Shown: positions 1,479-36,834, counted from the first letter of the stretch. The stretch: 64,000 nt of DNA from a virus (IMGVR_UViG_3300038366_000033:1-64000); one strand, 5' to 3'. The notes: a model not told the origin generated them from the letters alone. A program made the numbers and translations.

Positions 1479-2021
1479 TTAAATAAGTGTTGACGCAATA
1501 CCGACAGCACATGCTGCACGGACTACAGGAGATCGAGACACGCTGATATACTGCAGAAGGTATGCTGCAAACGCCCTGACAGAATTGCCCATGTATCCGA
1601 GTGACTCGGGAGTTATGCCGGACTCGCGGATGTCTCGCGAAGTATCTATGCCGTGATCGCCGAATACTTCTTTTTTGACGCGGTCGAAGCTGGAGGTCGA
1701 AATGCCGTAAAAGTCTAGGGCTTCTGTTGCGTTTTTGAAGTCTCTGCGGTCGTGCCAGAATACGATGAAGTCCTGTGCCGAGAAGAACTGTTTCTGGAGA
1801 TCAAGTCTGTCCCGGAGCCCGCGGACCACGAAGAGAAAGTCGGAGGTGCCGCCCTGATAGAACATGCCAGGAGACAGAGGTACATCGTGGTTTTGGCGCA
1901 GATCTAGGTAAAGAGAAGCTGCGTGCAGTACCTGATCGCCGCCGCGGTTTGCCGCCAGACGGCCCATGTTCGCAATGTCGAGTCCTGCCTCGTCGCGAGA
2001 TATCTCAAGATTTGCCCACAT
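1479..2021 (-). CDS. hypothetical protein, possibly a divergent TFB/cyclin-fold protein
   Basis: AASLYLDLR and GNSVRAFAAYLL..SRSPVVRAACAVGI loosely resemble TFB repeat motifs. Confidence 0.35.
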   Translation of the reverse strand: MWANLEISRDEAGLDIANMGRLAANRGGDQVLHAASLYLDLRQNHDVPLSPGMFYQGGTSDFLFVVRGLRDRLDLQKQFFSAQDFIVFWHDRRDFKNATEALDFYGISTSSFDRVKKEVFGDHGIDTSRDIRESGITPESLGYMGNSVRAFAAYLLQYISVSRSPVVRAACAVGIASTLI

Positions 2022-2261
2022 GAGGGAAGGCTTGTCGGCGAAAACATATAAACTTACGGCGTGAAAAATACGGGAACTTGAGAGGTGACGGATGGGGAAC
2101 TGCGAGTTTCCTTACGGCACCAAAAATGTGATATCCTGACACAGATTTTCGCAGGTGCACTGCTGCTGTCTGACTCTGCGGATCTGCGAATATATTGTTA
2201 TATACTATTTTGTATATACCAACATAAAAGGTTATTTAAAAGTTAAATACATAGTATATGT

Positions 2262-2441
2262 ATGGTCGATACAATGACCGAACAAAACAACAACCCATAC
2301 GTTATCTGGATATGTCCCACTTGTGGCAATCCCGAGAACGTGCCGACCGATTCAGAAAGTCAAGGTAAAACCGTAACAAAAGAACTAGAAGTCGAATGTG
2401 AATATTGCCGAATTGACGGCAAACTTGAGCTTGAGGTGTGA
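2262..2441 (+). CDS. small Zn-ribbon protein (CPTC...CEYC), 59 aa
   Basis: Manually translated; follows an AT-rich TATA region at 2225-2245. Confidence 0.65.
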   Translation: MVDTMTEQNNNPYVIWICPTCGNPENVPTDSESQGKTVTKELEVECEYCRIDGKLELEV

Positions 2442-3003: not shown

Positions 3004-3068
3004 CCCCCTCTTTTCCTTATACATATACTTATAAGGTTTGGCTACATAGTATGTGTATGGTGACAACC

Positions 3069-3470
3069 ATGAACCACGATTTGGATTATGACTACGTGAA
3101 GCAACAAGTAGAATCACACTTGAACATCGATATAAGAGACAAAGATCATGTGGCATTTGACCATCATGGAGATTCAACTGCCGATGTTCACGTGAAAAAA
3201 TCTGGCAACCGTAACCATTCAGAGATATTTTACAATGTCCGTGTATGTGAAGTTTGCGGTCATAGTCAATGTCTGAACTATGAAGCATATGCCCGACATT
3301 CTCCAGTTGAGGCTAAAAGCCTTCTCCAGGATCTGAGACGAGACGAGGCTGAGGAATATATCGACTTAGGAACAATGCCAAAGTCTGATAAGAGGCTGAA
3401 AGCTATCATCGAGGACAAACATCTCAACTGGAATAAAGCTGAATGTGACAGGAGACATCCAGAGGGGTGA
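3069..3470 (+). CDS. hypothetical early protein (CEVC motif)
   Basis: GGTGA SD downstream of a repeat promoter. Confidence 0.6.
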   Translation: MNHDLDYDYVKQQVESHLNIDIRDKDHVAFDHHGDSTADVHVKKSGNRNHSEIFYNVRVCEVCGHSQCLNYEAYARHSPVEAKSLLQDLRRDEAEEYIDLGTMPKSDKRLKAIIEDKHLNWNKAECDRRHPEG

Positions 3471-3474
3471 TAGA

Positions 3475-3627
3475 ATGATAATTCAACGTTACTGTGAGAA
3501 TTGTGGGCGGACAGAAGGGCTGACAGATAGAGATCTGAAACACCACGAGATTGTACAGAAGCCACACGATGAGTTATGTGGTAGATGTGCCGATGACGGG
3601 ATAGATAACAGAGACCAACCCCTCTGA
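3475..3627 (+). CDS. small Zn-finger protein (CENC..CGRC)
   Basis: Two CxxC motifs; GGGGTGA SD. Confidence 0.55.
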   Translation: MIIQRYCENCGRTEGLTDRDLKHHEIVQKPHDELCGRCADDGIDNRDQPL

Positions 3628-3687
3628 TTTTTTCTTTTTCTATTATACATTCTTTTATAAGGTTTAAGGTGTATACATATAATACCA

Positions 3688-3849
3688 ATGAAACTGACCG
3701 AACAACTTATTGACGAGATGGGAGCAGATACCCGACTAGATCAGACGTGTGCCATTTGTAACGAGACATTCAAAACTGATACGGGCTTCAAGTTTCATAT
3801 GAGAAATTCACATCCCGAGGAAGCTCAAAACAGAGGGCCGGTACTATGA
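3688..3849 (+). CDS. C2H2 zinc-finger microprotein, 53 aa
   Basis: CAICNETFKTDTGFKFHMRNSH; directly after a repeat promoter. Confidence 0.7.
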   Translation: MKLTEQLIDEMGADTRLDQTCAICNETFKTDTGFKFHMRNSHPEEAQNRGPVL

Positions 3850-4025
3850 GTCTGGAAGACAACCCGTACGAGAAAGCGGACGATCCATTCGAGAAAATCC
3901 ATGAGGATCTGAAACAGACCATGGATATGTATTTCCAGGATGGAGGAATTTCGAGGCCGGGATTTGCTGAGGCCCTTCTTACAATCGCTCAGGAGTATGA
4001 GGAGTTTGCCCGACATACAAAATAA
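3846..4025 (+). CDS. hypothetical protein, 59 aa
   Basis: ATGA overlap with the upstream gene; acidic. Confidence 0.6.
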   Translation: MSLEDNPYEKADDPFEKIHEDLKQTMDMYFQDGGISRPGFAEALLTIAQEYEEFARHTK

Positions 4026-4085
4026 TTTCCTTTTCTTTTCTTATAGATACCTTTATAAGGTTTCTTATCACTAACTATAATACCG

Positions 4086-4532
4086 ATGGATACACAAACG
4101 GTTACCTCTGAGGAAGAGGAATGGACGGAATTTGAAGCAAAACTTAAAACCGACTGGCATGATGAGGACGGAGTGAATCAGATCCACCTAGATGGAGAAA
4201 TGGATTTTAGAGCCGACCTATCGATGGACGAGATCTATGAGACCCTACATGAACGAGCCAAACAGATTGGAGGTCTAGTCTCCAAATCGAATGATGGGCG
4301 CATGGTTACCGTCTCAACTCAGCATGGAGCCTTGAAGTTCCGACTTATCGGATCAAACAAGGACGAGCCACTGAGCAAGATTATCAGCCATGACCAGACC
4401 ACTGGAGAAAGTCGCATAAGATCTATGGAGGATCTCCAGGATCAGGGCGAAGCCGCTGAGGAGTTCAAGGAGAAGCTAGAGGAAGCCATTGACGAGGGCG
4501 ATATTGAGATATCCATTGAGGAGAACCCCTGA
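4086..4532 (+). CDS. hypothetical early protein
   Basis: Follows a repeat promoter. Confidence 0.75.
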   Translation: MDTQTVTSEEEEWTEFEAKLKTDWHDEDGVNQIHLDGEMDFRADLSMDEIYETLHERAKQIGGLVSKSNDGRMVTVSTQHGALKFRLIGSNKDEPLSKIISHDQTTGESRIRSMEDLQDQGEAAEEFKEKLEEAIDEGDIEISIEENP

Positions 4533-4596
4533 TTTTTCCTTTCCTTTTTTCTTATACACATGTTTATAAGCCTTGCCTTCTGTTAGTATAATACAC

Positions 4597-4725
4597 ATGA
4601 AACGAGATCTGATCGACGACCTAGATATTGTATTGGACGACTTCAAAAATGACGTAACGGATGAAGACCAAGCTATAAACGACATTCTGTCTGTCCTAGA
4701 AAACCATGGAGTGGAGGTCGAGTAA
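4597..4725 (+). CDS. hypothetical microprotein, 42 aa
   Basis: Follows a repeat promoter; acidic. Confidence 0.6.
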   Translation: MKRDLIDDLDIVLDDFKNDVTDEDQAINDILSVLENHGVEVE

Positions 4726-4726
4726 A

Positions 4727-4984
4727 ATGGAGCTTGAACACGACGAGCCACTGACAGACCGCCTGCTGGATCTTGAAGCGGGCGACGGACTCCACTATGG
4801 TCTCTTGGAGGAACTGGAGAGCTCCGACGTAGACGTAAGAGTGGATGACCATTACCATGACTCGCAGGGATTTATCGAGACGTGGAGAATCGGAGACAAC
4901 GCCAAGATAGTTGTGGACTCTCTGAGGGGTCAGCCTATGGTCAGGAGAACTAGGGGCTTAGTTAAGGAACTCGCCCACAGATAA
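4727..4984 (+). CDS. hypothetical protein
   Basis: GGAGG SD; start at MELEHD. Confidence 0.65.
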   Translation: MELEHDEPLTDRLLDLEAGDGLHYGLLEELESSDVDVRVDDHYHDSQGFIETWRIGDNAKIVVDSLRGQPMVRRTRGLVKELAHR

Positions 4985-5045
4985 CCCTTTCTTTTTCTTC
5001 TTATAAACATACTTATAAGGTTTCGGTTGTATAAATATAATACCG
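4985..5045 (+). promoter_or_regulatory. representative repeat copy: oligo-T terminator plus archaeal TATA promoter for a leaderless mRNA
   Basis: CCCTTTCTTTTTCTTCTTATAAACATACTTATAAGGTTTCGGTTGTATAAATATAATACCG-ATG; TTATAA about 30 nt upstream of the ATG. Confidence 0.8.
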
Positions 5046-5357
5046 ATGACCGACATTAACCAAAGGTTGGCTGACGTTGTAGACGCTGAAATCGAAAATC
5101 TGAAAGACTTGGATGTCCCACACGAGAGGAAGCTTGGTGTCCTGGACGTAGTATATACCGTAGGAGCTGATAAGAGCATAAGAGAGATAACGCTTACGAC
5201 TGCCACAGGTGGACCGCACGTTGAAATCGACCTGATGAGCGGAAGCATAAACGCACACTGGGGAAGCGAGGACCACTACAGGACCATAGATGATGAGGAC
5301 GCACAGGAATCTCTGGACATCCTGATTGAGAGATACAAGGCGGTATTCAACGCCTGA
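5046..5357 (+). CDS. phage-type early protein (TGGPHVEID..WG motif)
   Basis: Follows a repeat promoter; motif reminiscent of conserved phage early proteins. Confidence 0.7.
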   Translation: MTDINQRLADVVDAEIENLKDLDVPHERKLGVLDVVYTVGADKSIREITLTTATGGPHVEIDLMSGSINAHWGSEDHYRTIDDEDAQESLDILIERYKAVFNA

Positions 5358-5420
5358 AATCCTTTTTTCTTTTTCTTATACATATACTTATAAGGTTTGC
5401 TATCACTATGTATAATACCG

Positions 5421-5711
5421 ATGACAAAGCGAATTATGGCCGGAAACGGTTTGGAAGAGCTTGAAGGTTACGATCTCGAAGAAGGCAAAACCTACTACAT
5501 AGGCGCCTCGGACTCTCCAGATCTGATTTACATTGAGAGCCTGGAGAAAAACCGAGTATTTTACAGAACGAGACCTTACACCGAGGAGAAGCTTATGTCC
5601 GAGAAAAGAGACATCGCTGAGGATTTGATAAAGAGAGGTTGCGAGACCATGGAGGAAAAGGGCCGAGACAAGTTTGTTAATCGAGATACGGACCTAGACG
5701 AAATCCAGTAA
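5421..5711 (+). CDS. hypothetical early protein
   Basis: Start defined by the repeat ending ATACCG-ATG. Confidence 0.7.
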   Translation: MTKRIMAGNGLEELEGYDLEEGKTYYIGASDSPDLIYIESLEKNRVFYRTRPYTEEKLMSEKRDIAEDLIKRGCETMEEKGRDKFVNRDTDLDEIQ

Positions 5712-5768
5712 CTTTTCTTTCTTTTCTTTATCATTTACTTTATAAGGTTTCTTATCACTATAATAACT

Positions 5769-5975
5769 ATGGTTATGACAACCTATGACCTACACAGCCC
5801 AGATGGACAACACGAGAAAAGCGGAACAATCAGGACCGAGGCGAGCTTTGAGACGGTGAGAGAAGCTAGAGATTCTGTAAAAGCTGATAGTGGCGAGATA
5901 TATCACTTGGTCCAGTTTCTGAACAAGAGAGGTTTCGAGACCGAGGCAGTCGACACAAAAAAGATTTTTTTCTGA
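5769..5975 (+). CDS. hypothetical early protein
   Basis: Follows a repeat promoter. Confidence 0.65.
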   Translation: MVMTTYDLHSPDGQHEKSGTIRTEASFETVREARDSVKADSGEIYHLVQFLNKRGFETEAVDTKKIFF

Positions 5976-6031
5976 TTTTTCTTTTCTTATACACATACTT
6001 ATAAGAGTTGTTCCGTATAAATATAATACCG

Positions 6032-6208
6032 ATGACACGAGAACGAAACTACTTCAAGGGATCCAAGGACTCCAGAAAATCCGCTTTCCAGAAAGAGGGC
6101 AGCTCCATCGTATGGGTGGAGGACGGTTCGAAGAACTCGGGAGTCAAGCAACAGATGAGCTTCGACGAGGATTTTATTCTGGACCTTGCCGAGAAGATCA
6201 GGAACTGA
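6032..6208 (+). CDS. hypothetical early protein
   Basis: Start defined by the repeat. Confidence 0.65.
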   Translation: MTRERNYFKGSKDSRKSAFQKEGSSIVWVEDGSKNSGVKQQMSFDEDFILDLAEKIRN

Positions 6209-6256
6209 CCCCTTCTCCTTTTCTTTATAATATTTACTATACATATCATATATACC

Positions 6257-6460
6257 ATGACTAGCAAGAAGAAAAAGACTGTTACAATCGAAGAACACCA
6301 CTACGAGTTTCTAGATAAAACCAACATCAACGCGTCGAAGGTCCTGAGAGAGGCAGTGAATCATCTCAGATCTCAGATGACTCATGAGGAAGAGGAGCTA
6401 CTGAGGAAGGCAGCGAATCCAGGACCCGAGCAATTCGAGGGTATGGAGGTAAGGGAGTAA
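6257..6460 (+). CDS. ribbon-helix-helix (CcdA/antitoxin-like) DNA-binding protein
   Basis: KKTVTIEEHHYEFLDKTNINASKVLREAV pattern. Confidence 0.65.
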   Translation: MTSKKKKTVTIEEHHYEFLDKTNINASKVLREAVNHLRSQMTHEEEELLRKAANPGPEQFEGMEVRE

Positions 6461-6511
6461 GCTTTACCTTTATAACTCTTGTTATACATATCATACATAG
6501 GGTGACACCAC

Positions 6512-6652
6512 TTGACAACAAAACTACTTTGGCAAAACAAAGGCGAAGTTGAGCTTCTAGAAGACTACGATAACGACTACTTCAAAATCAGAGATGCCTT
6601 CGGTAACGAGGTTATGGTTCACAGAAAAGAGGTCGAATACATTGACTCTTGA
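6512..6652 (+). CDS. hypothetical microprotein, 46 aa
   Basis: TTG start after GGGTGA SD and a degenerate repeat. Confidence 0.5.
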   Translation: MTTKLLWQNKGEVELLEDYDNDYFKIRDAFGNEVMVHRKEVEYIDS

Positions 6653-6839
6653 GGAAAAGTTCTCCCGACTTGATGGGGCAGAGGTAACCGGATCTGATCC
6701 GGTAACCTTTACCATCGAGAACATCGATCCTGAGAGCGACGCGATGGTATTCAAGAACTTGAGAATGAACTACACCTTCGAGGTCGAGAGAGTGGATATC
6801 AACGACGACGGGAATCTTGAAGCGGTGATCAGAGAATGA
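6642..6839 (+). CDS. hypothetical protein
   Basis: Acidic ORF; probable TTG start. Confidence 0.55.
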   Translation: MTLEEKFSRLDGAEVTGSDPVTFTIENIDPESDAMVFKNLRMNYTFEVERVDINDDGNLEAVIRE

Positions 6840-7054
6840 GATACGCAATCTGGAATACCCATCAGGGCAAGTTTCTTGGTCCTATGGACCACTCGACTCC
6901 CGACACATTCACCGATAAGGAGAATCTATTCGAGTTCTTTCAGGATCAGGTCGATACCCATGACCTAGACGATATCGCGCACCTCAGAGTGGTCAGGGTC
7001 GAGATCGCGGACGACGTGGACGAGGAGGCCGCGGAGGTGGTCCAAGTTGAGTAA
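6836..7054 (+). CDS. hypothetical protein
   Basis: ATGA overlap. Confidence 0.6.
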   Translation: MRYAIWNTHQGKFLGPMDHSTPDTFTDKENLFEFFQDQVDTHDLDDIAHLRVVRVEIADDVDEEAAEVVQVE

Positions 7055-7199
7055 ACATCCCATCATCGAGAACATGGACTCACAGGTCGACTCAGCTTAT
7101 TCTCACACCTGTAAGTTCTGCCAGGAGGAGTTTAACTCCGAGAGGATGTTCAGGCTTCATCAGAAGAGGGAGCATGACGAGAATCTCCCCTTCATTTAG
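7047..7199 (+). CDS. C2H2 zinc-finger microprotein, 50 aa
   Basis: GGAGGTGG SD, TTG start; CKFCQEEFNSERMFRLHQKREH. Confidence 0.65.
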   Translation: MSKHPIIENMDSQVDSAYSHTCKFCQEEFNSERMFRLHQKREHDENLPFI

Positions 7200-7256
7200 T
7201 TTTTCTCCTTCTTATACATTCTTTTATAAGGTTTACCTTCTATAAGTATAATACCG

Positions 7257-7409
7257 ATGGTTGCTATACCAGAAGATATGCTTCCCGAAGGCTTCTCCAA
7301 TCACATGGGGATGCCGATGTGCCCTTGCGGTAACATAACGGAAGTGGACGGAGAATTTCCATGCGAACACGAAAACCCAGTAAAGAAACTACTAGCAGGT
7401 GCTATATAA
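7257..7409 (+). CDS. Cys/His microprotein, 50 aa
   Basis: Follows a repeat; CPCG..CEHENP. Confidence 0.6.
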   Translation: MVAIPEDMLPEGFSNHMGMPMCPCGNITEVDGEFPCEHENPVKKLLAGAI

Positions 7410-7540
7410 TGAGACCTATAGATGAAGCGATGGAAGAAGCGGCAGAACATCTAGGTGAGGCTGCCGACTGCCTTCAGGACGCAGGAGATACTCAGGCACT
7501 AATCAAGGTCGAGGAAGTACTCGCGGAGGTGGAACCATGA
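7409..7540 (+). CDS. hypothetical microprotein, 43 aa
   Basis: TAATG and ATGA coupling on both sides. Confidence 0.55.
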   Translation: MRPIDEAMEEAAEHLGEAADCLQDAGDTQALIKVEEVLAEVEP

Positions 7541-7896
7541 GTGGATGGAAGACCGCACGATTCCACGTCGGGGACGACGTAGATGGCAAAATCGAGAGCT
7601 ACTGTGAAGCTAACGAGTACGCTAGTAAACGTGGACTCAACGGAATAGTCATCCGAGGATACGACGCCAAGATTAAAGAAGCGGTCAGGAAGATTATTCC
7701 AGGCGAGGAAGGTAAAGTACTTATCGTCGAGGCGAACGATACCTCCGACTCTGGAGATGCTTTCCTGTATGAGATCACCGAGGACTACGAGCTTGAACAC
7801 GTCGAGACCAAGCGAGGCTACGAGGGGGCGCGAGGTTACGACGCTATAGGCTACATGAGGGACGAGTACGACGTGGACGCGCCTGCTGGTCCATAA
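7537..7896 (+). CDS. hypothetical protein
   Basis: GGAGGTGG SD; acidic. Confidence 0.7.
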   Translation: MSGWKTARFHVGDDVDGKIESYCEANEYASKRGLNGIVIRGYDAKIKEAVRKIIPGEEGKVLIVEANDTSDSGDAFLYEITEDYELEHVETKRGYEGARGYDAIGYMRDEYDVDAPAGP

Positions 7897-7953
7897 CCTT
7901 TTTTCTTCTTATACACATACTTATAAGTCTTGTTCTGTATAAATATAATACCG

Positions 7954-8505
7954 ATGTTACAGACGAAAAAAATTGAAGTACCAGACCTAGTACTCAACCA
8001 CGAGGAAAAGGACGTAACCGTAAAACTCTACAGAGAACAGGATCCCGAGGACCCACTATGTTGGCCGTCCCTAGTTACACTGGACCTAGACCATTCACGT
8101 TATGACCTAGGAGACCGTAATATCGAGAAGGAAGGTAAGACAGTCATGAAGGCTATGCCAGTGTACCTGTACGACCATTCAGGTATAACTATCAGTACTG
8201 AGCCTTTCCAGTCACGTTGGGACTCCTCCAAGATTGGAACAGCCTATGTCTTCGAGGAGGACGTCGAGGACCGAGGTGTCAAGGAAGAGCACCGTACCAA
8301 GGAACGTGCGAAGCAATGGATCGAGGACCGCGTCGAACAGTACGATAACTACCTTCGAGGTGAGATATACAGATTCGAGCTATACGAGGATGGAGAACGG
8401 ACAGACTCCTGTGGTGGCTTTCATGACTGTGGATACATGGGACGTAACGAGATCCTATGGGACCACATAGGCTATGAGAGAGAGGACTTCGAGGTGATTG
8501 ATTAA
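7954..8505 (+). CDS. conserved phage/MGE early protein (YLYDHSGITIST..WDS..DSCGGF)
   Basis: Motif recalled from phage and MGE leading regions; start from the repeat. Confidence 0.7.
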   Translation: MLQTKKIEVPDLVLNHEEKDVTVKLYREQDPEDPLCWPSLVTLDLDHSRYDLGDRNIEKEGKTVMKAMPVYLYDHSGITISTEPFQSRWDSSKIGTAYVFEEDVEDRGVKEEHRTKERAKQWIEDRVEQYDNYLRGEIYRFELYEDGERTDSCGGFHDCGYMGRNEILWDHIGYEREDFEVID

Positions 8506-8654
8506 TGTCTTACCGCGTCCAGTTTACCCAGACCCTCTTGGTTGAAGAGGACTCCGAGGACGAGGCAGTCAGTACTGCAAAGAACGTTCTGTTCGACCAC
8601 TTGGGGCGCAAGGTCCTCAAGGAAGAGGACTTCGAGGTGCTAGGTGAAGAATGA
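8505..8654 (+). CDS. hypothetical microprotein, 49 aa
   Basis: TAATG coupling; GAGGTGA SD. Confidence 0.55.
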   Translation: MSYRVQFTQTLLVEEDSEDEAVSTAKNVLFDHLGRKVLKEEDFEVLGEE

Positions 8655-8734
8655 GACCGCGTTGCGAGAAGTGTCAGATCCGCTTTCTCCACCACTCCAA
8701 TCTGGTGTATCACTGGAAACAGGAACACCAGTAA
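8651..8734 (+). CDS. minimal single C2H2 zinc-finger peptide, 27 aa
   Basis: MRPRCEKCQIRFLHHSNLVYHWKQEHQ matches C-x2-C-x3-F-x5-L-x2-H-x4-H; GGTGA SD and ATGA overlap. Confidence 0.6.
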   Translation: MRPRCEKCQIRFLHHSNLVYHWKQEHQ

Positions 8735-8780
8735 CTTTCCCTTTCTTTTATAAGATTTCTTATACATAACTATACTACCG

Positions 8781-9053
8781 ATGACACGATTTATATTGAC
8801 CGCATACGAGCCTGTATATCAACATTCGGAATACAGAGTGACTACGAACCGCGAACCCGAGAAAATTCATTCAGAGGTTGATTCTCACATAGGGTCTCTG
8901 GACGGACAGTTCCACGTACGGGATACCGAGCTACAGATAAGCTACCGCGTCGTGGATTTCCAGGCAGGTCTGGACCTGATAAACGCTCTGAAGGACGACG
9001 TCATAGATAAAGAGCCTGAGGACGTAAGAGATAGTGAGTACGTCGAGGCATAA
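8781..9053 (+). CDS. hypothetical early protein
   Basis: Follows a repeat. Confidence 0.7.
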   Translation: MTRFILTAYEPVYQHSEYRVTTNREPEKIHSEVDSHIGSLDGQFHVRDTELQISYRVVDFQAGLDLINALKDDVIDKEPEDVRDSEYVEA

Positions 9054-9113
9054 TCTCTTTTTTCTTTCTTATACACACCTTTATAAGATTTCTTACCACT
9101 TACTATAATACCG

Positions 9114-9500
9114 ATGACAGAATTACGAGAACAGGTTGTATTTGGACGGTCAATCGACTGGGAAGAAGAATCAGTCGGTGGAGTCGTACGCTTCAAAGAT
9201 TTAAAAACTGAGGATGCAAAACGTCTGATGAAAGCCGGAGAGATTGACCCGGAAGGTCGACAGAACAACTCACCGATGGCGAGTGAGTTTATCAAGTTCA
9301 TGGACTCTGTTGACGACCACGATATTCGTGCGATAGGGTATATGGTCGCACCGGACAGGAGCGATTCCAGGATTACGATCGAGGGCTTGAGAGTCGATGA
9401 GTCAATATCCAGAGATCTGATGCTCAGGTTTACCAACAAGTTCAGAATGGCTGATGAGTTCACGGTAGAGGAAGACTACCTGAGGTGCTGGTATGACTGA
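9114..9500 (+). CDS. hypothetical early protein (QNNSP..IGY..LRCWYD)
   Basis: Follows a repeat. Confidence 0.7.
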   Translation: MTELREQVVFGRSIDWEEESVGGVVRFKDLKTEDAKRLMKAGEIDPEGRQNNSPMASEFIKFMDSVDDHDIRAIGYMVAPDRSDSRITIEGLRVDESISRDLMLRFTNKFRMADEFTVEEDYLRCWYD

Positions 9501-9630
9501 GGTATACTGGGTGAAATCCCCGGATCTGCCTGAGAATACTATCAGGTCTTACACTGCCGACGACATAGAGCACCTAGAAGATAAGCTCAGGGACGACGGG
9601 CTCGACTGTTACGACCTAGTACATCAGTAA
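9493..9630 (+). CDS. hypothetical microprotein, 45 aa
   Basis: GAGGTG SD; overlaps the upstream stop. Confidence 0.55.
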   Translation: MTEVYWVKSPDLPENTIRSYTADDIEHLEDKLRDDGLDCYDLVHQ

Positions 9631-9690
9631 TTCCTTTCTTCTTTCTTATACACATAGTTATAAGGTTTTCTGGCTATAAATATAATACCG

Positions 9691-9948
9691 ATGAGCTATT
9701 TTGACCTAACACCGGATACGTACACACCAAAAGAACTTGCAGACGAAATCAACATAAACGTCGACGAGGACCGGGGGAGATATGATACACTCACCAGTAT
9801 AGTAATCGCTCTTGAAGACGTACAGTACCTGAGCGGAGACGACGATGTTAAGTGGGAGGTGATAGCCAGACTTACCGAGGCACTTAACGACCTTGAACCG
9901 GATATGGACGTGGAGGTAACAGACCGGAAAGTCAAGGTCTACCACTGA
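9691..9948 (+). CDS. hypothetical early protein
   Basis: Follows a repeat. Confidence 0.7.
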   Translation: MSYFDLTPDTYTPKELADEININVDEDRGRYDTLTSIVIALEDVQYLSGDDDVKWEVIARLTEALNDLEPDMDVEVTDRKVKVYH

Positions 9949-10003
9949 TTTTTTCTTCTTATACACATGTTTATAAGTCTTGGGTTCTATAAGTATAATA
10001 CCG

Positions 10004-10462
10004 ATGGAAGAACTACAACGAGATCTAGCGGAGAAGTTAACTCTGTTTATGGAGGAAAATCAGCAATTTCACATCTCTAGGGAGTACACATCCGACGACG
10101 GCCTGACCCTGCAGGTACTTGTAGACTTTGGCATTGAGGACCGGGACGATGGTATGGCTTACCCTGCTGACGTGTTCGCGCGGTTCCAGGATAACATGGA
10201 GTACCTGCACGATCAGGGGATCCTTGAGGAAGGAGACAGGATAGAGGATATAAACAACGATGAGCTGAGAGATCTAATAGGAAATCACGAGCTCTTTACG
10301 GAGTTGAGGTCCGACCTGATTCGTGCGGTCAGACAGGTATTTGATATACCTAGGTCCACTAAGTTGGGTGTTCCGGCCCAGATGTCAGACGTCGATATAG
10401 ACGGACGCGTTGACATACACTACGGAATATGGAATACAAGGGACGGGGTCGAGAGCCCCTGA
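10004..10462 (+). CDS. hypothetical early protein
   Basis: Start defined by the repeat. Confidence 0.7.
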   Translation: MEELQRDLAEKLTLFMEENQQFHISREYTSDDGLTLQVLVDFGIEDRDDGMAYPADVFARFQDNMEYLHDQGILEEGDRIEDINNDELRDLIGNHELFTELRSDLIRAVRQVFDIPRSTKLGVPAQMSDVDIDGRVDIHYGIWNTRDGVESP

Positions 10463-10515
10463 TTTTCTTCTTATCAATTCATTTATAAGGTTTCTTATAC
10501 ATAACTATAATACCG

Positions 10516-11091
10516 ATGGGACAGTACTATACGATAGCTAACCTTGACGCGAAAGAGTACGTAAAACCTAGAAAACTTGGATCAGGACTTAAGCTCTGGG
10601 AGATCAGTATGACAAATGTTCCTCAGATCCTGCCTTACCTACTGAGAGAGACAGATAGTTCAGGTGGTGGCGACCCGAGAGTCAGACTTGAGAGAGACCC
10701 CGACATGGATGTAGAAGAACAGCTTGAGATCGAGAGACGGCGCACAGCAGAAGTTTACTCCATGATGGGTAACTGGGCAGGAGATAGAGTTGTGTTCCTA
10801 GGCGATTATACAGAAAGGGAATCTGAGGAATACGGGAACCTATACCAAGAGGTCCAGCAGAGCGAGGAATGGACGGACGTTTCCCGGACCGTGGCTAAAG
10901 AGGTCGCAGACTTTATCGACCACGAGGACAAGAACCCGGAAGTGCCTAAGGACCCACAGGAGTGCGACCACGAGGATCCTATGATTACCAGATACAGCGA
11001 CGAGGAAACATACGGGGACTTCTACTGTAGGGAATGTCATATGTCAAAAGAGCTAGAGACGGAAGAAGAACTAGGTGAAATCCGCGCCTAA
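10516..11091 (+). CDS. conserved phage protein (MGQYY..NLD..KLWE..WAGDRV..GDY)
   Basis: Recognisable motif set; C-terminal Zn site. Confidence 0.7.
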   Translation: MGQYYTIANLDAKEYVKPRKLGSGLKLWEISMTNVPQILPYLLRETDSSGGGDPRVRLERDPDMDVEEQLEIERRRTAEVYSMMGNWAGDRVVFLGDYTERESEEYGNLYQEVQQSEEWTDVSRTVAKEVADFIDHEDKNPEVPKDPQECDHEDPMITRYSDEETYGDFYCRECHMSKELETEEELGEIRA

Positions 11092-11219
11092 ATTTTTTTT
11101 CTTTCTATTTCTACATATATAAAAGTTGAGTGTTATGTATTTTGATTAGGGATCCGGTGTTAACCGTACGTGTCTTATGTACAAGTATATAAAGGTTGTT
11201 ATACAATACTTCAATACCG

Positions 11220-12017
11220 ATGGAAACACAACAAAAACAGGATGTTCCAGACACAACAGACGTACTGGAATCTATGCTGAAAACCAACACCGGACGTCAC
11301 CCACTCGACTCCGGTTCACACTATGGACGCAACTTTGAAGAAAATCAGAAAATAAAAGATCTAGAAGATGCACCTGTCTCGACCCATGACATCAGGAACT
11401 ACGATGACGAAATAGAATTGATTAGTTATGTATCGACGTATCATTTCCTGAAATACCGCGTCGATTATGATTCTGAAGCCCATGAGCTACAGCAACAGTT
11501 CGAGGACTACTGTGATAATCTGGATGCTCTAGAGGGTGAATCATGGTTAAGCTGCATGGAAATGCTCTTTGGGGGCGCGACCGTCAACACCTACAACCAT
11601 GAGCACATAGTCGATCAGGTCCTGCAGTTCTCTGGTTTCTCACTCGAACACGTGGGGTATGTATCTGATCGAGACCCGAGGCCCGAGGACCATGAGTTCG
11701 TACTCGGTGAACGTATAGTTCAGGCCGTCGAGGATATACATGGAGACTTTGTAGCTCTACAGATACACAATGGGTGCGACGTACGTGGGGGATACACATC
11801 TCCGACCGTATTCCGTGCGACCCATGGACTTGATTACCTGATTATGTCTCCAGGAACCGACGTATCATGTACTGAGTGCGGATGGGTCGCTGCTCAACGT
11901 GATGGCTATCATAAAGAGGGTGCATGGGACGAACTCGAATACCGTGAGGAACCGGATCTGATCTTCCATACGGAATGTGGGTCCGAATGTACGGTAAGGT
12001 CGATGGTACAAATATAG
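11220..12017 (+). CDS. conserved viral protein (NTG..LDSG..YGR; QIHNGCDVRGGY)
   Basis: Recognisable motifs; C-terminal Zn ribbon. Confidence 0.7.
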   Translation: METQQKQDVPDTTDVLESMLKTNTGRHPLDSGSHYGRNFEENQKIKDLEDAPVSTHDIRNYDDEIELISYVSTYHFLKYRVDYDSEAHELQQQFEDYCDNLDALEGESWLSCMEMLFGGATVNTYNHEHIVDQVLQFSGFSLEHVGYVSDRDPRPEDHEFVLGERIVQAVEDIHGDFVALQIHNGCDVRGGYTSPTVFRATHGLDYLIMSPGTDVSCTECGWVAAQRDGYHKEGAWDELEYREEPDLIFHTECGSECTVRSMVQI

Positions 12018-12043
12018 GCACATTCCCTCTTCCATTCTTATTT

Positions 12044-12213
12044 TGAATACCTATTCGGTGAGACACACACACAACGGTAAAGTTCCCATATTAAATACCT
12101 TTCCGTGGCAGACTGTTATGAGTACTAAGTGAAAAGGCAAATTCAATTGAGATCTGAAGGTCCATTCGGTGAGACACACACACAGTGCCAACTTTCCCAC
12201 TTTATAAACCTAT
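12044..12213 (-). ncRNA. tandem pair of self-promoted small RNA candidates (handle GTGTGTGTGTCTCACCGAAT..TTCA)
   Basis: Two copies 111 bp apart, each with an AGGT(A/T)T(T/A)TAA TATA-like box and GGGAA upstream. Confidence 0.55.
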
Positions 12214-13997: not shown

Positions 13998-14050
13998 CGA
14001 CACCATACTTATAAGTTTTCTTACTTAATTAGTACATAGGGTGACAACCT

Positions 14051-18590: not shown

Positions 18591-18617
18591 ATACACATAT
18601 TAGAGACCCAGACACAT

Positions 18618-18850
18618 AAAGGTATTTAAAGCGGGAACTTTGGGCTTGTGTGTGTGTCTCACCGAATGAGTGTTCAATTCCAGAAGTTTCCACATGAAAC
18701 CAAGGTAAACACAAAAAGGTATTTAAGGTGGGAAAGTTGCCGCCGTGTGTGTGTCTCACCGAATGAGTGTTCAGATTCAACCTGCATTTAAAAGGGCCCA
18801 TCTTACAGAATCTGTAAACGTTTCTGAACAGTTTTCCACATAACCTTTTT
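18618..18850 (+). ncRNA. second tandem pair of self-promoted small RNA candidates (same handle)
   Basis: Copies 97 bp apart: AAAGGTATTTAA..GGGAA..GTGTGTGTGTCTCACCGAATGAGTGTTCA; T-run at 18846. Confidence 0.55.
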
Positions 18851-29925: not shown

Positions 29926-30774
29926 ATGAGTGAGGATGACGCCGGAACTGAGAGAATAAGGCGTTACCTCGACGGAGAAGATAAACGACACTACGAGAGG
30001 GACGACACCGACGTTTACTCCGTCACGACGATTCTCGACGAAGAAAATGACGGGGAGCCATATTACATCCAGCAGTGGAAGAAAAACAACGACGGCAAGG
30101 GCGACAACGCATACTGGAAAGACATACTCGAATACAAGAAAAACCGCGGCACGATGGCACACTATGCTGCACTATCTCAACTGGAAGAACACCACCCTCA
30201 CGCAGAAGAGCTCTGGAGCGGCGATGAAAAGTCTTCACTTGACGCTATCATGGACAGAACGGGAGACAAAGACTTTCTGTACTCTGTTCTCAAAGACCGT
30301 GGAATGATAGAATCACGTGACGCCTACGAACCGATAAAAGACGAGATAGAGCTTACCGACATTTTCTACAACGACATGGACTATTTCAAGGACGCCTTCG
30401 CAGAAACTATGATAGATAAAGGTGTCACGCCAGAGGACGTAGAATCCGTAGAACACATGTTTGCGCTACCGGAGGGTCAGAACCACTCAGGTTACGGAGG
30501 CCAGGCCGACATGATCTATGAGGATCCTTACAACGGTGACCACGTAGTAGTAGATCTCAAGACGTCAAAGAACGTATATGACAAACACAAGAAACAGGCG
30601 GCAGCATACGCAGAGGCAGCCAAACAGTCACCAGACATGAACGGCGACTACATTGATAGAGCGGAAATATGGCGATTCTTTCCTGACGAAGAAGAAAAGG
30701 AGATATATGAAATCGATGACCACAGAGAGTACTGGGACGACTTTGCCCAGCTCACTGATGAAGCTTACGACTAA
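29926..30774 (+). CDS. PD-(D/E)XK exonuclease
   Basis: SVTTIL, RGTMAH, GGQAD, VVDLKTS, QAAAY. Confidence 0.85.
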   Translation: MSEDDAGTERIRRYLDGEDKRHYERDDTDVYSVTTILDEENDGEPYYIQQWKKNNDGKGDNAYWKDILEYKKNRGTMAHYAALSQLEEHHPHAEELWSGDEKSSLDAIMDRTGDKDFLYSVLKDRGMIESRDAYEPIKDEIELTDIFYNDMDYFKDAFAETMIDKGVTPEDVESVEHMFALPEGQNHSGYGGQADMIYEDPYNGDHVVVDLKTSKNVYDKHKKQAAAYAEAAKQSPDMNGDYIDRAEIWRFFPDEEEKEIYEIDDHREYWDDFAQLTDEAYD

Positions 30775-31930: not shown

Positions 31931-32923
31931 ATGACTGAACCAGACGACAACGTAAAAGAGCTAGACGGTGTTGGACCCAAGACCGGAGCGGACCTGAAAG
32001 CGTCAGGACGTGGCACGGTCAGGAAGCTGGCAACAGCGAACCCTGACACCTTACCAGAAAACACCTCGCTTGGCGAGAAAAAATCAAAGGACTTGGTCCA
32101 GACGGCCAGAAACGCTTTACGTGGCGGAAGCCCGTTCGAAAACGGACTGGACTTCGAGAAAGAACAGAATAATATGGGAACTATTAGCACAGGATCTGAT
32201 GACCTAGACGGCTTACTCCGTGGAGGCATCGCCGTAGGCTATCTCACCGAGGCTTTTGGTCTTTCTTCCTCTGGCAAATCACAGCTGGCTTTCCAGTTGT
32301 GTGTCAACGCACAGTTACCGGAGGACGAGGGAGGCGCCGGAAACGGAGACATGGTAATATTCATAGACGTAGAAGAGACCTTCAGGGCTGACAGGATTAG
32401 GTCTATGGCGAAGGCGGCAGGACTTGACCCGGACGAGGCACTCTCGAACATAGAGGTCGCAAGACCTACAGACGTGACGGATCAGGAAAGAGCCATACAG
32501 GAGACAAGACAGTTTGACCTGGACAACGTCGCGTTGATCGTGGTCGACTCTATATCAGGCCACGTCCGGAACGAGTATCAGGGTCGAGAAAACTTTGGTG
32601 AGCGCAGCGACCGCTTCGGTGGTATGCTAGAGGACTTGAGTAAGATGGCATCCGGAGAGACAGGTCATGACATCGCTGTGTTCTATCCCAATCAGGCAGG
32701 GAAGAAACCACAGAAACAGTACGGCGACCCAGTCTATTCCTATGGAGCATCGACTCTCGAACACCAGAGCTCTTTCAGGATGAGACTGGACGCCAGAGGA
32801 TCCAAGGGATACAACGCCTCTCTGGCTGACTCACCAAACCTGCCTCCGGGTGAGTGTTATTTCGACATATACGAATGTGGCATCAACGATCAGGACCACG
32901 AGTGTGAGATATGCAGTGATTGA
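31931..32923 (+). CDS. radA: RadA/Rad51-family recombinase
   Basis: N-terminal HhH, STGS..LDGLL.GG, Walker A GLSSSGKS, FIDVE.TFR..R, LIVVDS. Confidence 0.9.
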   Translation: MTEPDDNVKELDGVGPKTGADLKASGRGTVRKLATANPDTLPENTSLGEKKSKDLVQTARNALRGGSPFENGLDFEKEQNNMGTISTGSDDLDGLLRGGIAVGYLTEAFGLSSSGKSQLAFQLCVNAQLPEDEGGAGNGDMVIFIDVEETFRADRIRSMAKAAGLDPDEALSNIEVARPTDVTDQERAIQETRQFDLDNVALIVVDSISGHVRNEYQGRENFGERSDRFGGMLEDLSKMASGETGHDIAVFYPNQAGKKPQKQYGDPVYSYGASTLEHQSSFRMRLDARGSKGYNASLADSPNLPPGECYFDIYECGINDQDHECEICSD

Positions 32924-36222: not shown

Positions 36223-36834
36223 ATGACACTTTACATTGACAGCAGAGAGCCAGTAACTGTTCAAGCTATTGTTCAGACGACACTGGCCGACAGAGATACA
36301 GACGCAGAAACCGAGGTCAAGGAGCTCAAGACTGGAGACTTTGTTTACAAAAACGTGGTCATAGAGAGAAAGGAGGCAAGCGATCTCGCTTCATCGATCA
36401 AGGACAGACGCCTCAAGGAACAGACCCGGCGCATGACAGAGGACTTTGAACACCAGTATATCATCGTAGAGGGTGACCCGTATGACCTACAGTACTCCAA
36501 CCTTCACGATAACTCTTTCATCGGCACTTTGGTATCCCGTAGCCATGCCGGAATCAGTATTGTCTATACGCCGGACGAAGAGGGCACCGCCTACGCCGTG
36601 AACAAGATCGTCTCGAAACACGAGGACGACGAGGAACACAGAACGATCGAGCTAGGAGAGACCACGGTCAGCGACGTAGATACAGAGGTCGCCATGCTTA
36701 TGCAGATTGACGGCGTCAGTAAAAAGAAGGCCGAAAGGATCCTCGACCAGAGGGAGTTTGGAAAACTGGAAAGGCTATGTGAGATACGCGGTATCGGCGA
36801 AGTGCTTGAGGACCGCATTAAATCAGTACTATGA
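36223..36834 (+). CDS. ERCC4/XPF-family nuclease with HhH
   Basis: IDSRE, GDF, IERK..DLASSIKDRRL..Q, IIVEG, HhH motifs. Confidence 0.9.
   Translation: MTLYIDSREPVTVQAIVQTTLADRDTDAETEVKELKTGDFVYKNVVIERKEASDLASSIKDRRLKEQTRRMTEDFEHQYIIVEGDPYDLQYSNLHDNSFIGTLVSRSHAGISIVYTPDEEGTAYAVNKIVSKHEDDEEHRTIELGETTVSDVDTEVAMLMQIDGVSKKKAERILDQREFGKLERLCEIRGIGEVLEDRIKSVL

Follow-up and report, generated by a model that had tools for sequence, protein, structure and literature searches.

Hairpin-free intergenic repeats with the anatomy of terminator-promoter modules delimit units of small genes in an uncultured virus, probably of halophilic archaea

In T4-type phages (RB49/phi1, PST, and nt-1), composite promoter and stem-loop repeats, known as PeSLs, mediate modular shuffling (PMC2839356, PMC4122927). 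In the haloarchaeal virus HGTV-1, a conserved motif found before most of the open reading frames (ORFs) of one arm was likened to the PeSLs and proposed to serve regulation and shuffling (Sencilo et al., 2013, as described in PMC3950731), and the intergenic repeats of HF2 contain promoters with a B recognition element (BRE) and a TATA box, whose activity was shown by reporter assays and primer extension (PMC8707807). Here, we describe an array of 18 intergenic elements at positions 3004-11219 of the virus record IMGVR_UViG_3300038366_000033, analyzed over the first 64 kb (the window) of its 78,377 bp. We consider it likely that these repeats are composite terminator-promoter modules that split the early region into at least 18 short transcription units and that are also substrates for recombination. 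The idea, as put forward in a preliminary description of the locus, is not new, as it has been published for the T4-type PeSLs and suggested for HGTV-1; the concept of the terminator-promoter cassette is known already, and what we find here is a variant, a hairpin-free form with an unrelated sequence.

The elements, 16 of them clear and two degenerate (E9 and E10), all lie on the + strand. Each begins 0-3 nt past a stop codon and runs to the next start codon, filling the whole gap; 17 measure 45-66 nt and the last, E18, 128 nt. They account for 13.4% of the array sequence and delimit 18 units of 1-4 genes each, which bears out the preliminary description in its count of about 18 repeats bounding units of small genes and in their position a few nucleotides after the previous stop. 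An nhmmer profile trained on 12 copies was searched against the whole record and recovered its 12 training copies (E-values of 1e-11 to 1e-15) as well as four untrained ones (E1, E7, E13, and E18, with the E-values listed below), whereas the rest of the record, outside the array, gave no match better than E 0.6; in a control, 20 shuffled genomes yielded only 1-7 matches within the E<=10 reporting limit. An Rfam search of the element found no match at E<=0.1, and scans of IMG/VR with the repeat motif gave none. Traits expected of miniature inverted-repeat transposable elements do not fit either, as the repeats have a single orientation, an exact stop-to-start placement, and no flanking duplications. 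Because the modules are 50-93% identical in pairwise comparisons and all have the same orientation, they probably also act as substrates for homologous recombination and gene conversion.

From 5' to 3', the element consists of a pyrimidine tract with T(4-8)C, a CTTATACACAT box, TTATAAG(G), ~16 variable nt, TATAATACCG, and the ATG. The copies are given below with the means of their detection and, where it applies, with what is seen at the same place in L017, L020, and L021, three related short contigs found by a metagenome motif scan (75-96% identical to the window), or in Logan contigs, which are k-mer-based and come from three further runs of one study.

3004..3068, + strand: E1, a variant that looks leadered, with T/C tract, CTTATACATAT, TTATAAGG, and GGTGAC box before ATG 3069 (nhmmer E 6e-6, untrained)
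3628..3687, + strand: E2 repeat (start-anchored listing, nhmmer)
4026..4085, + strand: E3 repeat (start-anchored listing, nhmmer)
4533..4596, + strand: E4 repeat (start-anchored listing, nhmmer)
4985..5045, + strand: E5 repeat, counterpart in L021 98% identical (listing, nhmmer, contig comparison)
5358..5420, + strand: E6 repeat, with the left breakpoint of the L021 replacement just past its TATA box (listing, nhmmer)
5712..5768, + strand: E7 repeat, distance from TATA box to TATAAT 4 nt shorter (nhmmer E 0.04)
5976..6031, + strand: E8 repeat, missing in L021, whose U7 and U8 genes are joined by a TGATG overlap (listing, nhmmer)
6209..6256, + strand: E9, degenerate, precedes the gene of a ribbon-helix-helix (RHH)-like protein and has TATACATATCATA (start-anchored listing)
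6461..6511, + strand: E10, degenerate copy that looks leadered, with GGGTGAC box, TTG start, and TATACATATCATA (start-anchored listing)
7200..7256, + strand: E11 repeat (start-anchored listing, nhmmer)
7897..7953, + strand: E12 repeat (listing, nhmmer), with the joint 7905->9953 in Logan contigs
8735..8780, + strand: E13, short, without the CTTATACACAT box and with the TATACTACCG signature (nhmmer E 1e-5)
9054..9113, + strand: E14 repeat (listing, nhmmer), replaced by an E13-type copy in L020; in-register joint 8770->9104
9631..9690, + strand: E15 repeat (start-anchored listing, nhmmer)
9949..10003, + strand: E16 repeat (start-anchored listing, nhmmer)
10463..10515, + strand: E17 repeat, 3' half of E18 type in L017 (listing, nhmmer)
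11092..11219, + strand: E18, 128 nt, with T8C tract, upstream TATA-like box, and a proximal degenerate copy ending in CAATACCG before the ATG (nhmmer E 0.25)

When the copies are anchored at the start codon, 14 of them have the first base of TTATAA exactly 33 nt ahead of the ATG, and TTATAAG(G) forms a short A/T inverted repeat with the CTTATACACAT box. On the + strand of the array, 13 of the 14 T-runs of at least 5 nt and 17 of the 18 pyrimidine runs of at least 10 nt fall within the repeats. The first genes of the units have no GGTGA box or ribosome-binding site; a box of the GGTG(A) type, or else an overlap with the stop codon of the preceding gene, is found for most internal genes. In E1, E10, and a weaker site at 14009, the TATA box lies farther upstream and a GGTGAC box is present, and these three variants look leadered. 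In Haloferax volcanii, leaderless transcripts (0-5 nt) make up 72% of the mRNAs, and promoters combine a BRE, a TATA box, and a -10 WW element (PMC4983044); intergenic termination occurs there at T stretches ending in C, a T5C stretch terminating 95% of transcripts (PMC7237163). Because the element matches both rules, it reads as an oligo-T terminator followed by a leaderless promoter, the TATA box at -33, the AT-rich -10 region, and the missing ribosome-binding site agreeing at the sequence level with the promoter consensus of such a host.

The T(4-8)C tract just past the stop codon would thus be an archaeal oligo-T terminator or attenuator for the upstream unit, the CTTATACACAT box would occupy the BRE position, TTATAAG at -33 would be the TATA box, and the AT-rich TATAAT with ACCG would form the initiator region. 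The predicted transcription start, at -4 to +1 relative to the ATG, would give a leaderless mRNA, and the later genes of a unit would be translated from GGTG(A)-type ribosome-binding sites or through the overlap of stop and start. This anatomy is consistent with the earlier proposal that each cassette is expressed independently, and the units are probably co-regulated. In fact, the conservation exceeds the needs of a basal promoter, such that the extra conserved parts (the box at the BRE position, the palindrome with the TATA box, and ACCG) suggest one shared regulator. What we observe directly is the anatomy of the elements, their specificity, and the differences between strains at the repeats; promoter and terminator activity, early timing, and any benefit of shuffling are inferences.

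As for the virus, positions 1-1670 of the window and 76708-78377 of the record are 92% identical over 1,670 bp. This likeness of the record ends suggests that the contig runs once round a unit of ~76.7 kb, probably joining two strain variants. The record is labeled 'linear, 71% complete', which probably understates its completeness. The G+C content of the virus is ~46%, and its small proteins are acidic. Among its genes are those of a ribonucleotide reductase, a RadA/Rad51-type recombinase, and a DNA methylase, and three of its proteins (capsid protein, protease/scaffold protein, and large terminase) bear a distant resemblance to their HGTV-1 counterparts. A megablast of the virus against 50,697 phage records gave no match, and the sole match of the capsid protein is to an Altiarchaeum virus (29%), such that the virus is not of the HF1/HF2 type. 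Taken together, the RadA and ERCC4 proteins, the latter with helix-hairpin-helix (HhH) motifs, the acidic proteome, and the HGTV-1-like head genes point to an uncultured tailed virus of halophilic archaea.

The present array shares with the T4-type PeSLs the placement of terminator-promoter repeats from stop to start among small orphan early genes, all copies lying at 3004-11219 in an early-type variable region upstream of small orphan proteins, and also the indel and replacement junctions between relatives that lie in repeats. Such junctions occur in L017, L020, L021, and the Logan joints, in a share no higher than that of the gene junctions that carry a repeat. The PeSLs, however, have sigma-70 promoters, Shine-Dalgarno sites, and a stable, often G/C-rich stem-loop, whereas the signals here are of the archaeal TATA type, apparently leaderless, and without a stem-loop. 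The 14 copies that were folded had minimum free energies of -1.3 to -10.6 kcal/mol, with 10 of the 14 z-scores between -1.2 and +0.5, and in none of them was a stable stem-loop found, only a weak A/U hairpin of 6-8 bp (CUUAUA/UAUAAG) in some; the position of the terminator is taken by the T(4-8)C tract instead. For the PeSLs, experiments have demonstrated mini-circles as well as activity of the promoter and the terminator; the present array is described at the level of its sequence.

The likeness to HGTV-1, whose motif we counted in ~21 copies at 128.7-142.2 kb of NC_021328, extends to the type of virus (tailed and haloarchaeal), the TATA-like box ~30 nt before the start codon without a ribosome-binding site, the small ORFs, one cargo gene in common, and the distantly related head genes. 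The HGTV-1 unit differs in being ~110 nt long and in having a G+C-rich hairpin (ACTCCTCGTG-GCA-CGAGGAG), a second TATATAAA box, and a CGAAAG BRE; the sequences of its hairpin, TATATAAA box, and BRE-TATA region do not occur in the present virus. The present element, in contrast, measures 45-66 nt, has only the T/C tract and no stable hairpin, and fills the whole intergenic gap. Its inverted repeat spans no more than 6 bp of A/T around the TATA box, a box that the two motifs share along with their layout as an array. Evidence of shuffling from populations is unavailable for HGTV-1, whereas there is some for the present array. With HF2, the array has in common the AT-rich intergenic repeats of a haloarchaeal tailed virus, but the nine HF2 repeats are scattered over 16-77 kb and leave out the first 16 kb of early genes, their positions are conserved among relatives, and no terminator part has been described in them. 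The gamma motif (CGTCTNNTAGAG) and class II motif (CCCTTTAC) of HF2 have no match anywhere in the record, and its 10-nt beta motif has only scattered one-mismatch matches outside the array. The element lacks a stem-loop and shares no sequence with the repeats of the PeSLs, HGTV-1, or HF2.

The units contain mostly small acidic proteins (isoelectric point mostly 4.0-5.5), and two C2H2 zinc-finger proteins are the sole paralogous pair. No Pfam family reached its cut-off for the cargo; only sub-threshold C2H2 matches and a weak CcdA/RHH-like one (E 0.015) were obtained. The cargo is close to what the preliminary description had named, mostly unrelated small acidic proteins, with putative zinc fingers and an RHH-like protein. 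The units that the argument needs are the following, together with the recombinase gene.

3069..12017, + strand: 18 cargo units, U1-U18, with 34 genes of 27-265 aa, nearly all acidic and without known family
5421..5711, + strand: U6, 96 aa, absent from L021
6257..6460, + strand: U9, 67-aa RHH-like protein with a weak CcdA match, flanked by two TATACATATCATA boxes
7257..7409, + strand: first gene of U11, 50 aa, cysteine-rich, 59% identical to HGTV-1 gene 311
7954..8505, + strand: first gene of U12, 183 aa, widespread viral family phrog_6186, confident predicted fold
8781..9053, + strand: U13, 90 aa, a 28%-identical allele without own repeat in L020, skipped in one Logan contig
10004..10462, + strand: U16, 152 aa, absent from L017
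31931..32923, + strand: RadA/Rad51-type recombinase (PF08423, E 9e-48)

Within the window, the 13-mer TATACATATCATA is found at exactly two places (6238-6250 and 6483-6495, versus 0.01 expected). One copy lies in each of the degenerate repeats on either side of the RHH-like gene, which makes them a candidate operator for its protein.

We then compared the window with the related contigs; L016, L018, and L019, also returned by the metagenome scan, were chance matches without similarity to the window and were set aside. In L017, U15 passes directly to an E17-type repeat and U17, such that U16 and one repeat are gone; the junction lies in the T-tract of E17, and the 3' half of this copy is of E18 type. 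L021 follows the E6 sequence through the TATA box and then continues into a 56%-identical allele of U7, which overlaps U8 directly (TGATG); U6 and E8 are missing, and the repeat at the E6 position is a hybrid. In L020, the repeat at the E12 position matches E16 of the window at 46 of 46 aligned nt, and only its 3' part differs from E12. The gene at 8505-8654 is missing from the same contig, deleted at a repeat-free junction, U13 is replaced by a 28%-identical allele coupled to a zinc-finger gene, and an E13-type repeat precedes U14. Protein identity jumps from unit to unit (96%, 56%, 95%, and 100% in L021; 98%, 28%, and 70% in L020). The Logan contigs reproduce three of these contig junctions and add the in-register joint from E13 to E14 (8770->9104) and repeat-free deletions of whole genes. 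With regard to mini-circles excised between nearby repeats, the sole backward joint (6009->5766) in the assembled contigs of the four runs fits the linear arrangement of L021. Repeats therefore exchange sequence, as the mosaic repeats and the units lost or replaced between strains show, and the unit content varies between strains. The exchange, where it is seen, looks like homologous recombination or gene conversion, and these processes, acting between modules, would produce mosaic repeats and the loss or replacement of units, as with the T4-type PeSLs. The variation in content with junctions in repeats, which the preliminary description expected of relatives, is thus present, but the variation in order is not: the shared units keep the same order in all three contigs.

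Several observations count against the interpretation of the repeats as transcription modules that also recombine. With TTATAA at -33, the distance to the ATG exceeds that of the HGTV-1 TATA box by 4 nt, and the start could therefore be a few nucleotides upstream of the ATG. The element also fits the bacterial sigma-70 pattern TTTATA-18-TATAAT. Joints between two repeats that are known only from the k-mer-based Logan contigs may have arisen in assembly. The loss or replacement of whole genes also takes place at repeat-free overlaps of start and stop (7402->7537, 8502->8651, and 12654->12826), the losses sharing only 4-5 nt of sequence at their junctions, and gene turnover in the early region therefore extends beyond the repeats. 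Ten of 12 breakpoints lie in repeats, versus 13 of the 16 gene junctions covered by the three contigs that carry a repeat, such that selection for gene boundaries alone would suffice, and a role of repeat homology in setting the breakpoints is not demonstrated. Finally, L024, a relative with 70% protein identity in a neighboring gene, lacks the array; in this genome and in L025 (66-70% identity in the 285-aa neighboring protein), the array was not found, only TATA-like boxes of TTTAAGGTTT or TTATAAAAGTT type.

Some of these observations would be expected if the repeats were purely regulatory, that is, strong early promoters and terminators with a shared operator, perhaps CTTATA...TATAAG, an inverted repeat overlapping the TATA box, read by a viral regulator, with the strain differences arising by ordinary illegitimate or short-homology recombination and selection for intact genes, and without any particular role of the repeats in the gain and loss of genes. 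The gene losses at repeat-free junctions and the equal shares of breakpoints and of repeat-carrying junctions argue in this direction, as do the repeats of HF2, which hold their position among relatives. We hold this explanation to be unlikely, though it deserves to be taken seriously, because the mosaic repeats (the E16-type copy at E12, the E18-type half in E17, and the E6 hybrid of L021) require exchange between repeat copies 0.6-2 kb apart, and the joint 8770->9104 keeps E13 and E14 in register. Hence, of the shuffling through repeat homology by the viral RadA, as it was first put forward, the unit loss and replacement, the mosaic repeats, and the presence of RadA stand, but not the setting of the breakpoints by homology, given the repeat-free losses and the proportion of junctions with a repeat.

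The fit to the sigma-70 pattern raises another explanation, according to which the virus is a bacteriophage and the element a sigma-70 promoter giving a leaderless mRNA. Seven copies score 10/12 against the consensus, each with a perfect TATAAT, but the total number of such sites, 17, is that expected from shuffling (16.6), and the spacer of E7 is 4 nt shorter. The gene content also disagrees, with Rad51/RadA-type and ERCC4-HhH proteins, head genes and one cargo gene matching HGTV-1, and a capsid protein matching an Altiarchaeum virus. We rejected this explanation, to which we assign hardly any probability.

The resemblance to integrons lies in the small, unrelated genes in the same direction, parted by a recurring site, and in the presence or absence of units between relatives. 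It was suggested at the outset that the array is an integron-like but integrase-free bank of anti-defence genes. Integrase-free it is, as tyrosine (PF00589) and serine (PF00239) recombinases have no match in the whole 78-kb record, whose ends overlap. The likeness to integrons does not hold beyond this, since no integrase and no structured, attC-like sites are found and every unit has its own promoter, by its sequence, rather than a single Pc. A virus-borne recombination set lies at 29926-30774, 31931-32923, and 36223-36834, with a PD-(D/E)XK nuclease, RadA, and an ERCC4 nuclease with HhH motifs.

That the units are a selected bank of anti-defence cassettes, with anti-CRISPR or anti-restriction proteins as cargo, exchanged through the repeats by the viral RadA, is speculation, and in our judgment very improbable. 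It draws on the coming and going of units between strains, on the RadA protein and the two nucleases, and on the cargo of near-orphan small proteins, one of them shared with the motif array of HGTV-1. Against this stand the missing integrase, the z-scores of the folds, most of them between -1.2 and +0.5 and thus unlike attC, the individual promoters in place of a common one, and the constant order of shared units; moreover, no cargo protein matches a known anti-defence family, and the best-modeled one is suggestive of an enzyme. This is the 183-aa protein of U12, with a predicted local distance difference test score (pLDDT) of 93. For its fold, Foldseek found no PDB structure with an E-value below 0.1, and a wide VIA-align search reached a best Z of 5.0; in a protein atlas, only unnamed viral clusters and one structural neighbor fused to DUF3846 were found. 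Its family has invariant Y73, H75, S76, G77, D90, S91, G95, and G155 and a near-invariant Cys in at least 90% of sequences, and these conserved His, Ser, Asp, Tyr, and Cys residues would fit an enzyme better than an inhibitor. The families of this protein and of the 265-aa protein (11220-12017) occur in phages of Actinobacteria, Alphaproteobacteria, and Bacillota and in archaeal viruses, and Erythrobacter phage vB_EliS-L02 has members of both, 1.2 kb apart. A search with the 265-aa protein returned only distant viruses (32-54% G+C), none of them with this repeat. The proteins of U6, U16, and U17 have no relatives in IMG/VR, and that of U16 has ~13 distant ones (E<=1e-10) among 1.84 billion representative proteins.

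The cysteine-rich protein at 7257-7409 has HGTV-1 gene 311 (L023, 47919-48050) as its sole match among the 50,697 phage records, and each of the two genes sits behind the repeated promoter motif of its own virus. One may imagine that the array and the RadA, PD-(D/E)XK, and ERCC4-HhH proteins form a working system of cassette exchange, in which neighboring repeats would recombine and set free circles with one unit and a hybrid repeat; inserting at any repeat of a co-infecting genome, these circles would carry orphan early genes from one halovirus to another. The gene in common with HGTV-1 would then be a traveler with new flanks, and a virus-specific factor reading the CTTATACACAT box at the BRE position would tie gained units to the early programme. 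We regard such a system as quite doubtful.

Around the array, two genes diverge from it, at 1066-1512 and 1479-2021 (both - strand), and are kept in L024 (8006-9190) and L025 with 32-42% identity. The 148-aa protein of the first has weak winged-helix (TrmB/MarR) matches. The 180-aa protein of the second is all-helical (model pLDDT 66); it has no match in Pfam or to PF00382, and TFB/TFIIB chains appear only among the non-significant rows of its search. The first rightward promoter (window 2220-2262, before the gene at 2262) is TTATTTAAAAGTTAAATAC, not a copy of the array repeat, and resembles that of the first rightward gene of L024 (TTATAAAAGTTAAACCC, near 11940-11972, reverse-complemented). 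A second repeat family, AAAGGTATTTAA with a conserved stretch containing a GT/AC run, has two copies at 12043-12211 and two at 18612-18780. We read the first pair as lying on the - strand, in which case the two pairs would bracket 6.5 kb in opposite directions.

The finding opens no new class of system. It provides what appears to be a compact, hairpin-free archaeal version of the T4-type terminator-promoter cassettes, and to the description of HGTV-1 it adds the natural strain variants that were missing there, with exchange between repeats and with gain, loss, and replacement of units beside them. The ~16 near-identical natural modules, putatively promoter and terminator in one, are testable in Haloferax reporter systems, and the 34 presumably early proteins, nearly all without family, are candidates for host takeover.

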